Shown one piece after another: positions 33,001 to 39,000 of a stretch of DNA of 64,000 nucleotides. Position numbers: made by a program. The stretch comes from Gammaproteobacteria bacterium. Its GTDB lineage: Bacteria > Pseudomonadota > Gammaproteobacteria > UBA12402. Each line of letters begins with the position of its first letter. Positions within the stretch are counted from its first letter, which is position 1. Location: the NCBI GenBank assembly GCA_016930035.1, contig JAFGHQ010000042.1:16437-80436 (forward strand), in the 5' to 3' direction.

Positions 33001-36000
33001 TACGCTTCATGATAATAGCCAGTAATTAATAGCGCTTTTAAAAGTTCTAATAACTCTTTTTGTTCTGGGTTTTCCAGCGAGTAACCAGAGATAATTTCTA
33101 GAATTCCTCCAATTTGATTCAAAAAATAATCGAAACTAATGGTTTCGCCCGTAATATTAAATTGGTTACATCTGTGCCGCCATAAGCCTTGAAATAAGTG
33201 TGCTGCCTCATAATCTTGATAACGATTTTCTAATGCTTGAATAGATAATTCTCTGGGGCCAGGAAATTTCACGACTGAAATCGCTGCAAGGATCCTTTCG
33301 CAATGAGACATCCATATCTCTTTTACTCCTTGATCCCGAGATCGCTCTACTTTCTTTTTAAAACTCTCCAGATAACGAACCAATGATCTTTTAAAAAATT
33401 CTACTATAGGAAAGCCATCAGTTTCATTTGTTTCTTGCGAATTGAGCAAAAGAATTAATGCTTCTTGACTAGTTAATGATGATAATTTTTGAATAAAATT
33501 TTCACGTTCTGTAAGATCAATGTCAGTTTGTTGTCTAAGGAATTCACAAAAATTTGGAAAAAATTTTTCTTTGAGCGTTTCAAACATTTTTATTCTCGTT
33601 GTTGGTTTAATAAATCTATACGCACAAATGCATTTGCGTAATTAATATAAAATACAAAATTATTAAAACTACCTGCCAGATCGGCAAAGTAATCGACCTA
33701 TTTATTATTCTTGGTAAACTTAGCTTAAGTAATAAATACTTAGTTATTATCCGAAAAAATGCCATACACTCACAAATGTTTTTTATAATTTGTTACTAAC
33801 ATTCCCAACACTCCCTCTATGCATGATTTAAAAAAATCGATATAATTGTGCGTGTTTTTTACATAATTTCATTATTAATACTAATATAAGAAGAATTCTA
33901 AGCATGTTTTTTTGTCATCGTAGAAATACTTCCCAAATAAATTCCTTTAACGGGCCTGAAACCTCTACAGATATTGATATGATCCTTATCAGACTCAATT
34001 TAAGTGAACGCCATCCACCGCAACGAGAAACCAGAAGTATAATCAAGTTGGTTAAAAGAAATGGTACTCTATTAATTTCAATGAATCGTTATGCTATATG
34101 GCTTTATCATAGATATCGCCATAAATTTACTGAGAAGGGATTATGTCTCGCATTTTTGTTAAATCATCACTCAAAGAGCGAAAGGGGAAAGCTTGAATCA
34201 ATAGAAAAGGGGGGGGTTGTATATTACTTATGTGATGTCTTTCCCTCTCTTCAAGGAGAACAGTTTAAAAAAATTAAAACCATGATAAAAAAAGCAGCTA
34301 AATCTTATGAGAATAGATGCTTAGAAGAAGCACCTCAACAGCAAAAAACCAGCCATCAATCCAGAGGATATGCAACCACTTAGGTTGACCGCAAAATAAA
34401 ACACCCAACGACAAGGCGCGAGGATTTTATTTAGATGATGGGCCTGTTAAGATCTGGACTTTTTCAAAAAAATAAAGACGATAAGTCTTTGTTTTTACTG
34501 GATACTGAATCAAGTTCAGGATGACGAAGACAGGATCTCCCGGATAAGAATGGGGAGATTTTAATAGCCCGGGAGGGGCCGCCGGCGCGAGCGGGCGGAT
34601 TTTAATAGGCGCGTACGCCGCGCCCTACATTTTCGGGAGCATCTGTAGATTGTAATTGCTTCTCACGAGGCAGTCCCTGCTTCTTAAAAAAGCCTAGTTT
34701 TGAAAGCTGGGCTGATAGGCCTAAAAAAATAACATGTCCGGCTAAATTTACTAAACTTTTTAGTATTTTCTTTGCTTCTTTTCGTCGTGCCTTATCGCCT
34801 GGGGCCTTTTTTAATTCCTCTTCTCCTGAATAGACTTTAAACCCTAAGCTTCTAGCGTATGCCCATACTAAATGTTGATAATGCTCCGGAATACGACTGA
34901 TTTCTACTGTGTCAGCCCCACTGCTTCGAATCAATAGCAGCGTTTGTATGATCCTTTCAGCGGTATAATTGCCTTGCAAGTCAAAGAGATTTTCTTTCTT
35001 GCGGTAGATGATTGTTCCTCCTTGTTGGAGTTCCAGTTTTGTTTCGCCATTTCCGTTTGTGCCGCTTTGAGCTACTTGAGCTACTGCTCCGCTTTCCTGC
35101 GCTTGCGCGATGGTTTCTTCTATGGTTCGTGGGCTAACGCCTCCTGCTCTGATGCCTTCTATCTCTTTTTTTGCTTCTTGCCACAATTCTGAATCGGTTT
35201 TGGTTTCAGGTTTACTTGTTCCCTCATCAACTTTTGGCTCATTTTTTTGGTTTGATTCAAATAAATTTTCACTACTCATGTTTTCAGGCATAAACTGACA
35301 AATATTGGCAACCTTTTCCATCAAGGTGAGTCCGAAGTCGTCTGGTATTTCTGGCAAAATTCTATCAAGCTCTTGGGTTAAACTCATCATATAATATGCA
35401 TCGTGACTTCTCTTTAAATGCATTGTCTGAACTGAGTAATCTTCTCCAAAAGTTTGGCTTAACCTTTTTTTGATATCCTGTATTTGGTTGCTATTGAGCC
35501 GTCTTCCTTTGCTTACTTCTACTATTATGGCTTGTCGAGTTTTTGTATCCACCACGAATACAACGACCCGACGTCCCATTTCTTCTTGTTTTACAATATA
35601 TCGCGTATTTTCACTGGTGGGGAATTCCGAGCAAGTACTTGGAGGTGGTGATTGCGTTATACTTACAGCAGACGATCGTTCCAATGAGCTTTCTATCTCG
35701 GCTCTTGGGTTGGCTACAGCCATCGGGCATGTTACCATAAAATGTGTGACTGCTTTTTTGAGCTCTTCGTCGGGGATAATGAGTGGATTATGTTCAGAAG
35801 AATTTTCTCGCCTTGTTGCGGCATTAGTGGTGATAATCTGAAAATCTGTATTCCCTAATTTGGTCGGGTCTATTTCGGTATTGGTGAAATCCACCGGAAT
35901 TTGAGTGAAGTCATTAATCTCAATGCTGTTGCTTGATAATTGTCTCAACTTTTCTGCAGCACAATCACCAACGATGTACTTTTTGACTTCTCCATTTCTA

Positions 36001-39000
36001 AAATCAATAAATATATATACGCCTGGCAATTCAGCTACAGGCACAACCACCACGCTATTGCGATATTTAGCTGAGCTACCGACAATTGTTTCTATACATG
36101 CTTTTAAACCTCCTATTTCGTATCGGCGCATTAATTTAATTTGTCGTGTTTTTTCTCTGGCTAAATCTAGTGGGGTTCTTCTTTGGCGATCGAAGGTATC
36201 TAATTTCGCTCCTGCTTGAAGCAGTAAATCAACAAGAATTAAATCGCCTTGTTCTATTGCTTGATGTAATAGGCTATTGCTTTGACGATCTACAATGCTG
36301 GGATTTGTGCCGGCCCGCAATAAATCTATGACTAAACTATAATCTCTTTCCTCCTGAGGCTTCTCCATTTCTTTTTCAGCAGCAAGATATAATGGCGTTT
36401 TCCCTTGATAATCCCTTGTATTGAGCATCTCAGGAAATGCTTTTACTAAATACGATATCAATCGCTGATTTCCTTCTAACACCGCAAGATGAAGCAAATT
36501 TCTATCTAAATAATCCTGGAATTTCAGTATTTTTTTCTTACTTAAGACGGCTTTGCAAACGCTGCCTCCGGAATCTTTATAAAAAATCGTCAATTGATGT
36601 TTTGTTTCGTCAAGGTACAAAAGAATTTCGTCTGGCTTTAAAGCGCTCAATTTTGGCCTCAATTCTTCTTTATTGATAGCAATTGCTTTAACCTGCTTTC
36701 CTGTATACGGACGGGTTGCTCTTTGCGGATGAGGCTTTCGCGGAAATAAATGATCAGGCACCTGGCCAAAATCTGAGATCTGGTGCAAGAATGCATCCTT
36801 TTGTACTGGACTTAAGTTATCAAAATCTTGGGGTAACCCATAACAAAGAGAGAAAAAGAGGTTGACTGCTTCCACAGCTTTTTCTCCTCGTTGTTGGAAA
36901 CCAAAAATTAAATCAGCCCAAGAATTAAGTTTTTGAGAAACAGGTGCTGATTCCAGCTTTTTTTTGTGCCATCGAATAAATTCCTTTGGTTTCATGCCGT
37001 CGGGTAATGCAACATCTCCACCCCTTTCTCCCCAAGGCCTAACGCCCAAATCTAATTCAAGTTTATTTTCTAAAAAAGCAGGGTTATAAAAAAATTCAGG
37101 GATTAATTCAGGAAGTTGACTTCCTTCATTCGTAGCTTCGAAAATATTATCTTCGTCTTTTGAAATATCCCACAATAATCTCCCGGGTATGTCAAATTTA
37201 CCGCTTTGCAATTTAATATTTGATAAAGGGTTCTCTCTTAGCAAAAAACGACTAACATGTCCCGCAATTGAATACGAGGTCCCCCATATAAACGGTACAG
37301 TACTGGGATCGGAATCATCCAGGATCTGCTGCTTCATAAACTTAAATCGCCCTACCCCAAATCTCCTCCTATCGTCTCTTAGTGCGCCTAGTGATTTCGA
37401 TAAATCTCGGTATTGTTTTTTGAGATATACCCAAGGAAAAACTGGGTATCTATTTAGATCATGAAAAGATCTGCCGGCGGCTTTGTTAAGATCCAGTAAA
37501 TATTGAAAGTTGGATATGTCGCCTCGCAACCATTTTTTTTGACGTGCTTTAATCCATTTTTTGGGATCACGAACTACACGTGAGCGCGGTAATTGCTGTT
37601 TGATCCGTTGTCTTAATTTTCTCGCGTCTTCTAAACCCCGTTTTGTGGGAACATACTTTATGACAACCTCATCGCTGCCCCATTTGTAAGTGATAATTTG
37701 ATCTACATTCCCCTCTTTTTTTTCATCAAAACAATCTAACAAAATACTCGTGCCATCAGTAAAAAAGATCTCTACGCCTGGGTGAATGGCTTCTGTAGTT
37801 CGATCAAAAACAGATTCGATCTCGTCCAACGACCATGATCTTTCTAATCCTGTTTCCGGGTTTGATAGATAAACTCGATCCTCTTCTATTCGAAGCTCGC
37901 TGGGTATCCGTGTTTCATTATCTAGTTCGTGAATTTTATACATGGGAATCTTACTCCCTGTAGTATTTCCAATTAATATTTGGACAAGAGGTTGTTATCC
38001 AGAAGGAGCGCTGCCATCGCTGTCATTCCGAGGGAGCACTAGCGACCGAGGAATCTCAAAGGCGAGATTCTTCGTCGCTTCGCTCCTCTGAATGACAGCC
38101 TGGTGACAATGTCGGCGCATAGCGCTGCCTCTGAATGGACAGCCTGGTGACAATGTCGGCGCATAGCGCTGCCTCTGAATGACGGTATGGTTACCATTAT
38201 TTGTCTCAATGTTGGAAATACTATAAGTTTCTCTTTTTATCTTTATTAACAAAAATTAAAGACAAGTTGCTACAGTAAAATAATAGTACAAATTTAACAA
38301 AAAAGCTTTTAAATAAAGGATAAAAATCAAAGATTATAAGTCTTTGATTTTAATGGATCCTGAATCAAGTTCAGGATGACATGACCTGTTATGTAAATTT
38401 CCATGTTGTAACTGGAAATTTACATAAATCGGGGGCTACATTTATGAGTCATTTTTTAGCTCCTTTAAAAAAATTTCAAAAAATATTCAACACGCCAACT
38501 CATAATGCAAATTTGATTTATGGGGGCAAAGATACTTTTATACAAAATGGTTTTCGTATTTTTTTCTTGGGATACCTTTCAGTCACAATGGAAGAATCAG
38601 GTGCTAGCTCATGGCAAACACTTTTAAATCAAAACGGGGAAATATAATAGTAACCTGACTTCGATTAGCATTTTGATATAATTAAAAATTAAGAATGAAA
38701 AATTAAAAATTCATGTGTCGCTCCCGCCTTCGCCCCGCACCCACGTGTGTGGTTCGGGGCGAAGGCGGGAGCGACACCGACATTTAAAATCTAAAATTTA
38801 TAATTTAAAAGTTTATGAAGATTTTTAATTGATACCTAATCCTTAAACCTTTATCGAAATTTTGTGATTTTCGTATATTTGATTTTTAAATGCGTTTGCC
38901 ATGGGTGCTAGCTCCGACCGGGGGAGTTTAATCATTTAAAAAGCTTTTGGCGTTTAGGGGATTCTTCTGGGGTTTCTTTATTCTGTAACTCACTTGATCC

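Follow-up and report, generated by a model that had tools for sequence, protein, structure and literature searches.

We analyzed a 64,000-nucleotide stretch of contig JAFGHQ010000042.1 from the Gammaproteobacteria bacterium assembly GCA_016930035.1 (positions 16,437 to 80,436; hereafter, the window) and found that a gene at 34602..37943 (−) encodes a protein in which a eukaryotic-type PH-BEACH module is joined to ankyrin repeats. The gene is complete, a single uninterrupted open reading frame (ORF) with an ATG start and a product of 1113 aa, exactly as a preliminary description of the window had given it, and all six protein blocks quoted in that description were found in the translation. At NCBI the product is recorded as MBN1684229.1 (locus tag JW855_02170), "MAG: hypothetical protein [Gammaproteobacteria bacterium]", MAG standing for metagenome-assembled genome; the label arises because no NCBIfam model recognizes the BEACH part. 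We lean slightly toward a reading in which the protein is exported and would mimic or compete with host BEACH scaffolds, altering endolysosomal or autophagic traffic.

The PH-BEACH module

The Pfam BEACH profile PF02138 matched aa 136 to 408 (36720..37538 [−]) along its whole length (profile positions 1 to 276 of 276), with an E value of 4.1e-69 and 233.5 bits against a cut-off of 26.8, and the domain was also recovered by phmmer, AlphaFold, and Foldseek. This bears out the earlier claim that a complete BEACH domain with its conserved blocks is present. The segment that precedes it comprises a PH-like domain (aa 1 to 88) and a helical linker running to aa 135 (together 37539..37943 [−]), as seen with phmmer, AlphaFold, and Foldseek. 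The Pfam PH_BEACH model scored 19.9 bits, under its cut-off of 27.5; a Pfam check proposed in the preliminary description thus gave BEACH and ankyrin above their cut-offs and PH_BEACH below.

In phmmer searches, aa 31 to 408 aligned contiguously to two PH-BEACH crystal constructs, that from neurobeachin (1MI1, E = 5.3e-51) and that from LRBA (1T77, E = 1.6e-49). An AlphaFold2 model built with a 78-sequence alignment placed seven strands and a C-terminal helix in aa 1 to 88, with a predicted local distance difference test score (pLDDT) of ∼80 to 92, and the BEACH domain that follows was modeled confidently. The first strand of the PH fold coincides with the start of the protein, which has no N-terminal extension. 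With Foldseek, the only strong matches were 1T77 and 1MI1 (E ∼1e-27; template modeling [TM] score of 0.73 to 0.75, target normalized), followed by assorted PH domains. Because of the contiguous alignment, the modeled fold, and the Foldseek matches, we take the predicted PH domain to be real despite its subthreshold Pfam score, in keeping with the PH-like segment noted before BEACH in the preliminary description. The columns that are near-invariant in eukaryotic PH-BEACH (at least 90% conserved) are kept in 82 of 103 cases, signature motifs included. Taken together, sequence and predicted structure identify the protein as a BEACH domain-containing protein (BDCP), with a full-length BEACH domain and a PH-like domain directly N-terminal to it in what is predicted to be one structural unit.

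Ankyrin repeats, linker, and C-terminal half

Downstream of the BEACH domain, Pfam identified three to four ankyrin repeats (aa 462 to 599; 36147..36560 [−]), with Ank_2 at E = 1.1e-12 and Ank_5, Ank, Ank_4, and Ank_3 also above their cut-offs (aa 462 to 595), and gave no match to WD40 repeats C-terminal to BEACH. The presence of ankyrin in place of the usual WD40 repeats, as had been proposed, therefore holds. The intervening linker (aa 409 to 461; 36561..36719 [−]) has no detectable homology to the eukaryotic post-BEACH region, and phmmer found no homology to eukaryotic BEACH proteins beyond approximately aa 410. Confident AlphaFold strands at aa 411 to 470 arose where the alignment had laid eukaryotic WD40 sequences over the region. 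We considered these residues as a possible relic of a WD40 blade and rejected the idea, as a direct phmmer search of the segment gave no homology (best E = 0.018). Low-confidence strands over the ankyrin region are an alignment artifact, because eukaryotic WD40 sequences were aligned there. In NCBIfam, the ankyrin segment most resembled the ankyrin portions of models for Legionella Dot/Icm effectors (AnkY/LegA9, 1.3e-11), at scores far under the cut-offs (43.6 bits versus a family cut-off of 600).

The remaining 514 residues (aa 600 to 1113; 34605..36146 [−]) form an orphan C-terminal half that is predicted, with low confidence, to be of mixed alpha/beta structure. An exhaustive phmmer search against 1.84 billion representative proteins returned only the protein itself; a word-index search was empty, but that tool also missed the protein itself. 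No match was found in the PDB, and no internal repeats were detected in this half. A single-sequence AlphaFold model of it had a pLDDT of 41.8 and was unusable. Located 28 residues before the C terminus is a hydrophobic segment, ILKSLVNLAGHVIFLGLSAQLSKLGF (approximately aa 1060 to 1085; 34689..34766 [−]), which is flanked by Lys/Arg and could be a membrane-targeting helix; its Kyte-Doolittle mean over 19 residues is 1.57, a value that only one other stretch of the protein exceeds. At the opposite end of the protein, no signal peptide or Sec signal was found; the N terminus is hydrophilic and lies already within the PH fold.

Bacterial context of the gene

The BEACH gene is native to a bacterial contig and is not eukaryotic contamination. 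Its GC content is 0.40 and that of its third codon positions (GC3) is 0.33, and its codon usage correlated with that of all other window genes at r = 0.957, among the highest values in the window. The PH-BEACH part and the C-terminal part are each native in GC, GC3, and codon usage, and the short ankyrin segment is lower (r = 0.66). The gene is one continuous ORF in which no introns were found, and a Shine-Dalgarno-like AGGGAG (37954..37959 [−]; the reverse complement of ctccct, read from the sequence) is located 10 nt 5′ of the ATG. The test for contamination that had been suggested, namely deviant GC or codon usage or a spliced structure, thus came out negative. No informative result came from Rfam or from promoter/terminator scans of the sequence around the gene. 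The window also encodes the cell wall proteins PBP2, RodA, MltB, RlpA, and an L,D-transpeptidase, together with SAHH, two-component systems, ABC and MFS transporters, an ADP-forming acetyl coenzyme A (acetyl-CoA) synthetase, a nonribosomal peptide synthetase (NRPS), a SocA/HTH antitoxin, DUF4143 ATPases, and three tRNAs.

The gene is further tied to its surroundings by a repeat family. An element of ∼115 nt, with terminal inverted repeats of ∼15 nt (GGCTGTTGAAATCTG ... CAGATTTCAACAGCC) and two internal hairpins, is present in 8 copies in the 64 kb, all of them intergenic, versus 0 expected by chance. It is short, noncoding, and dispersed, with terminal inverted repeats, and by these properties resembles a miniature inverted-repeat transposable element (MITE). 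The copies lie within 9400-9530, 16735-16865, 22800-22930, 26895-27025, 31901-32031, 34417-34547, 38272-38402, and 43440-43570. That the BEACH gene is flanked by such elements, as first described, was confirmed: one copy is located downstream of it (34439..34545 [+]) and another, whose left end is degenerate, upstream (38294..38400 [+]). Three consecutive copies in the same orientation bracket a 507-aa gene, a 159-aa gene, and the BEACH gene. Since copies also lie beside housekeeping genes, the flanking pair defines no gene-specific mobile unit; instead, the distribution ties the orphan-rich segment at 27 to 38 kb to the same genome as the core genes.

These data bear directly on the possibility that contamination or chimeric assembly put a BEACH gene from a protist onto a bacterial contig. 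Such a history has some basis, in that BEACH contigs of other GTDB MAGs were contaminants wherever they could be judged. Moreover, the independently assembled Logan contig on which we found the identical protein (run SRR13394437; 10,992 bp) breaks at repeats at ∼38.03 kb, 91 nt upstream of the gene, and at ∼27.0 kb, and it connects the BEACH gene to orphan neighbors only. However, the GC, GC3, and codon usage of the gene are indistinguishable from those of core genes, the intronless gene has a Shine-Dalgarno motif, the ankyrin and orphan parts lie within the same ORF as BEACH, and eukaryotic proteins are at most 44% identical to it. In addition, a single MITE family occurs both inside the 27- to 38-kb segment and beside the PBP2/tRNA-Ser, APH and GNAT, and PNPOx genes. 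Because the composition is native, the ORF is single and intronless, and the MITE family is common to the core gene regions, we regard contamination or chimerism as highly improbable and close to refuted.

Distribution and origin of the module

A comparison with 5.8 billion clustered proteins gave no close relative besides the protein itself; the other listed matches were at most 44% identical, and those with a named source were all eukaryotic. A scan of GTDB with two peptide patterns (one genome per species, 185,579 species), which could miss divergent genes, yielded eight BEACH loci, L001 to L008. Five of these (L001 and L004 to L007) look like misbinned eukaryotic DNA and were rejected as bacterial, and L002 and L008 are without a verdict. 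On L001 (CBDFFF010000027.1, filed as Abditibacterium sp.), a FAN-like PH_FAN-BEACH-WD40 protein is encoded together with a HERC-like RCC1-HECT ligase and an ABC transporter of full size, and the matches on L004 to L007 are split across reading frames and by introns. L003 has a GC content of 27% and no ORF of at least 150 aa, which is also unlike bacterial DNA. We note that several GTDB species-representative MAGs thus hold eukaryotic contigs. The metagenome proteins most like the window protein in trees (P0099, P0082, and P0093) adjoin SF3b10 or leishmanolysin/EGF genes or have a FAN-like WD40 architecture and were set aside as eukaryotic. No BEACH match was found in 72,556 plasmids or in IMG/VR viral contigs.

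According to the preliminary description, no bacterial effector with a BEACH domain is known to have been described. This has to be corrected, as a 2026 preprint mentions in one sentence an effector candidate of "Candidatus Centrionella," AC1EYZ_000939, with a BEACH domain most similar to a homolog from Anaeramoeba flamelloides (10.64898/2026.04.11.717937). In our full-text literature searches that sentence was the only precedent for a bacterial BEACH gene, and the window gene is one of only two bacterial BEACH genes of which we found any record.

On sequence grounds, acquisition from a eukaryote is the only reasonable origin of the module, because every other relative whose source can be judged is eukaryotic. 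The preliminary description had proposed a horizontal, probably protist-derived origin; transfer from a eukaryote into a bacterium is upheld by these comparisons, and a protist donor cannot be assigned from the long-branched tree. The best match was to A. flamelloides at 222 bits, only 3 bits above the brown alga Ectocarpus, a lead too small for us to accept Anaeramoeba as the donor. The BEACH domain is at a distance of 0.89 to 1.0 substitutions per site from all eukaryotic BEACH domains, which average 0.55 among themselves, and its terminal branch measures 0.52 versus a median of 0.067 (∼8-fold). With so long a branch, about equally far from every eukaryotic BEACH domain, the module cannot be traced to a particular donor lineage. 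In neighbor-joining bootstraps, the domain paired with the FAN-like P0099 and P0082 in 90/100 replicates and with the wider FAN-like set in ∼45/100. We rejected this grouping as long-branch attraction because P0099 and P0082 are the other longest branches (mean distances of 0.92 and 0.89 versus a median of 0.57) and because diagnostic columns split 2:2 between the FAN-like and the other state. Fully ameliorated codon usage in so divergent a sequence suggests that the acquisition is old, that the gene has evolved fast, or both.

Lineage of the bacterium

The closest NCBI protein to the PBP2 of the window is in GCA_018812595.1 (61% identity), and the gene order PBP2-RodA-MltB is common to both; the next named relative is that of Aquicella lusitana, at 54% identity. 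GCA_018812595 is placed in GTDB family UBA12402 alongside "Ca. Cochliophilus" and "Ca. Centrionella," and its 16S has 97% similarity to that of "Ca. Cochliophilus cryoturris," a symbiont of amoebae (10.64898/2026.04.11.717937). In the same family, and in genus JAFGHQ01, is "Ca. Centrionella anaeramoebae," whose host is Anaeramoeba pumila and for which a complete Dot/Icm system and 184 predicted effectors are reported (10.64898/2026.04.11.717937). Judged from this one marker protein, PBP2, the window most likely comes from an uncultured member of UBA12402 ("Ca. Centrionellaceae," Legionellales in the broad sense), a family of amoeba symbionts with type IVB (Dot/Icm) secretion systems, or from close to it.

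Proposed function

We propose that the PH-BEACH module was captured from a eukaryote and joined to ankyrin repeats and a lineage-specific C-terminal half. The protein would be exported into a host protist, most likely by way of Dot/Icm; this route is suggested because there is no Sec signal and because characterized members of the lineage rely on Dot/Icm effectors rich in ankyrin and other eukaryotic-like domains. In the host, the PH-BEACH unit would bind the same ligand as the host BEACH proteins. A distinct partner or membrane destination, e.g., the symbiont-containing vacuole, would come from the ankyrin repeats together with the C-terminal half and its terminal helix. In consequence, endolysosomal or autophagic compartments surrounding the bacterium would fuse or divide differently, or the autophagic capture of the compartment that contains it would be redirected.

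As far as can be judged from its sequence, the protein has a eukaryotic-like domain of foreign origin and lacks a Sec signal, as Dot/Icm effectors do. Orphan coiled-coil proteins are typical of effector repertoires, and the neighboring orphan coiled-coil genes were therefore counted in favor of an effector. The effector-like island in which the gene had been placed could be checked only in part: the neighbors at 27206-34383 have no Pfam family, and two of them encode long coiled-coil proteins rich in Q/E/K. In eukaryotes, PH and BEACH form one unit, overexpression of the BEACH-containing C-terminal fragment of LYST leads to enlarged lysosomes, and Dictyostelium LvsB restrains Rab14-driven lysosome fusion (PMC11106369). 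By analogy, the proposed host effect would be comparable to the lysosome enlargement caused by the LYST fragment and to the role of LvsB. We infer both translocation and the subversion of trafficking or autophagy from the taxonomy and from the roles of BEACH proteins.

Several points weigh against this proposal. Among the 103 near-invariant PH-BEACH positions, 21 are substituted (for example, HYGTHYS is changed to IWGTSYS and PPWA to PDGM), and a conserved 11-residue loop is deleted after aa 175 of the BEACH domain. The module may, as a result, bind other things than host BEACH domains do, or it may be partly degenerate. The last 20 residues, inspected by eye, have weak Dot/Icm-like features (E at −10, D at −13, S/T at −14 and −15, and V at −4), no secretion system genes, Dot/Icm included, were found within the 64-kb window, and the taxonomic placement comes from one marker protein, PBP2. 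The proposed host effect rests on analogy because the biochemical function of the BEACH domain has, to our knowledge, been unknown since the domain was defined.

The heavy substitution and the loop deletion would also fit a translocated effector whose PH-BEACH module now serves another purpose, as a general scaffold for binding proteins or lipids, and does not compete with host BEACH proteins in endolysosomal or autophagic traffic. It might, for example, couple to sphingomyelinase or actin signaling in the manner of FAN or anchor a kinase as in neurobeachin. The neighbor-joining grouping with FAN-like (PH_FAN/GRAM-BEACH-WD40) proteins points in this direction, as does the wide range of cellular roles among BEACH proteins (PMC11106369 and PMC4489804). 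However, the grouping looks like long-branch attraction, and the PH_FAN/GRAM domain and the WD40 repeats that mediate FAN receptor binding are both absent. We consider such a repurposed scaffold unlikely.

A captured eukaryotic fragment that is not secreted at all, and is either drifting to loss or serving inside the bacterium, would account for the long terminal branch and the 21 altered positions, and also for the singleton status of the protein, which has no bacterial ortholog among the 5.8 billion clustered proteins. But a 3.3-kb ORF without frameshift or stop has persisted until its codon usage became fully native, most of the near-invariant columns and the signature motifs are kept, and the fold is predicted with high confidence. 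The module is trimmed exactly at the PH boundary and fused in frame to the ankyrin repeats, which suggests a selected architecture, and a related symbiont, "Ca. Centrionella," likewise keeps a BEACH gene. A nonsecreted fragment therefore seems distinctly improbable to us, and export into a host with an effect on BEACH-controlled traffic is the reading that we carry forward.

Neighboring genes and repeats

The two long orphan genes on the downstream side of the BEACH gene lie at 28431-31892 (−) and 32064-33587 (−). The first encodes 1153 aa, with a Pro-rich N terminus followed by ∼600 aa of Q/E/K-rich coiled coil, and the second product, of 507 aa, has a basic middle part rich in Pro/Arg and a tail that forms a coiled coil. 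No Pfam family matched either of them, and both gave only SMC-like coiled-coil noise; the strong AT skew at 29 to 33 kb is due to these two genes.

The second hairpin of the MITE, GATCCTGAATCAAGTTCAGGATGAC (38359-38380 and other copies), recurs as an identical 22-mer in over 120 metagenome contigs (loci L015 to L134) from very different habitats, with GC contents of 23 to 67% and none related to this organism. It is mostly solitary there, beside sibling hairpins such as GTCATTCCGGACTTGATCCGGAATC and GTCATTCCCGCGAAAGCGGGAATCC. This hairpin is a cosmopolitan family, and we rejected the 22-mer as a probe for more of this genome, since it matches only unrelated metagenome contigs. The 1.1-kb intergenic region upstream of the BEACH gene carries three further repeat features (38020-38200 and 38670-38822), namely, a hairpin (GTCATTCCGAGG...GGAATCTC), a 44-nt tandem repeat in 2.5 copies (38085-38197), and an imperfect palindrome of 72 nt whose core is GC rich and of which one arm recurs at 40421-40463. 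The Logan assembly break falls in this repeat-bearing region.

Elsewhere in the window, a gene at 40483-41880 (−) encodes 465 aa with two deoxynucleoside kinase stretches, a tandem fusion that is consistent with nucleoside salvage in a host-dependent bacterium. The ADP-forming acetyl-CoA synthetase (CoA_binding, Succ_CoA_lig, and ATP-grasp_5) is located at 46647-48764 (−) and the NRPS, with two modules (A-T-C-A-T), at 58687-63723 (+); both gene types were highlighted for the anaerobic symbiont "Ca. Centrionella" (10.64898/2026.04.11.717937). A 167-aa ORF at 17125-17628 (−), between tRNA-Ser (16961-17049) and tRNA-Arg (18010-18087), matches only positions 26 to 137 of the 260 in the serine dehydratase alpha profile and is probably a partial gene, located where tRNAs are dense and repeats are present. 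The 690-aa product of 6129-8201 (+) had no Pfam match at E < 1e-3 and scored 701 bits with the NCBIfam TreS (maltose alpha-D-glucosyltransferase) model TIGR02455, just under its cut-off of 719.

Comparison with known systems and significance

Chediak-Higashi syndrome, LRBA deficiency, and grey platelet syndrome, as well as ALFY-dependent aggrephagy, all have a BEACH protein at their root, and BEACH proteins are very large and hard to work with. The window protein resembles the eukaryotic BDCPs (LYST, NBEA, LRBA, WDFY3/ALFY, and NSMAF/FAN, and LvsA to LvsF of Dictyostelium) in that a PH-like domain directly precedes a BEACH domain of full length. It retains every signature motif, its PH-BEACH module can be aligned over the whole length with 33 to 44% identity, and the predicted fold of the module matches 1MI1 and 1T77. 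It differs from them in being encoded by a bacterium, in having ankyrin rather than WD40 repeats and an orphan C terminus of 514 aa, in the 11-residue deletion in BEACH, and in the absence of a large N-terminal region (ARM/HEAT, ConA-like lectin, or GRAM/PH_FAN). At 1113 aa it is also shorter than many BDCPs; LYST, for comparison, has 3801 aa (PMC11106369).

AC1EYZ_000939 is likewise a BEACH protein of a Legionellales-type symbiont of the UBA12402 family, listed among its predicted effectors, and in both cases the best-scoring eukaryotic homolog is from A. flamelloides; the comparison draws on a one-sentence description of that protein. The host of "Ca. Centrionella" is known (Anaeramoeba pumila), whereas the window comes from a MAG without a known host. 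The ankyrin Dot/Icm effectors of Legionella, Coxiella, and Rickettsiella (AnkX, AnkY/LegA9, and AnkG) provided the best NCBIfam similarities of the ankyrin segment, but none of these families contains BEACH, and the window protein is known here from sequence. In its architecture the gene is a new variant within the BEACH family, and its product is plausibly an effector of a new type in the style of Legionellales.

A PH-BEACH unit of 410 residues that is trimmed at its boundary and rewired to ankyrin repeats offers a compact probe of BEACH function, and it adds a domain to the host modules captured by Legionellales-type symbionts. Together with the "Ca. Centrionella" gene, it suggests that the UBA12402 family may target BEACH-controlled trafficking in anaerobic or other amoebae. 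A more specific idea, which we hold only tentatively and on balance doubt, is that the protein is a minimal, trans-acting PH-BEACH module injected by the symbiont to take over the BEACH pathway of its host. If this is true, the host-binding partner of the module would reveal a direct ligand or activity of the BEACH domain, and BEACH-controlled organelle fusion or autophagy would be a recurrent target of the intracellular bacteria of the UBA12402/Centrionella group.

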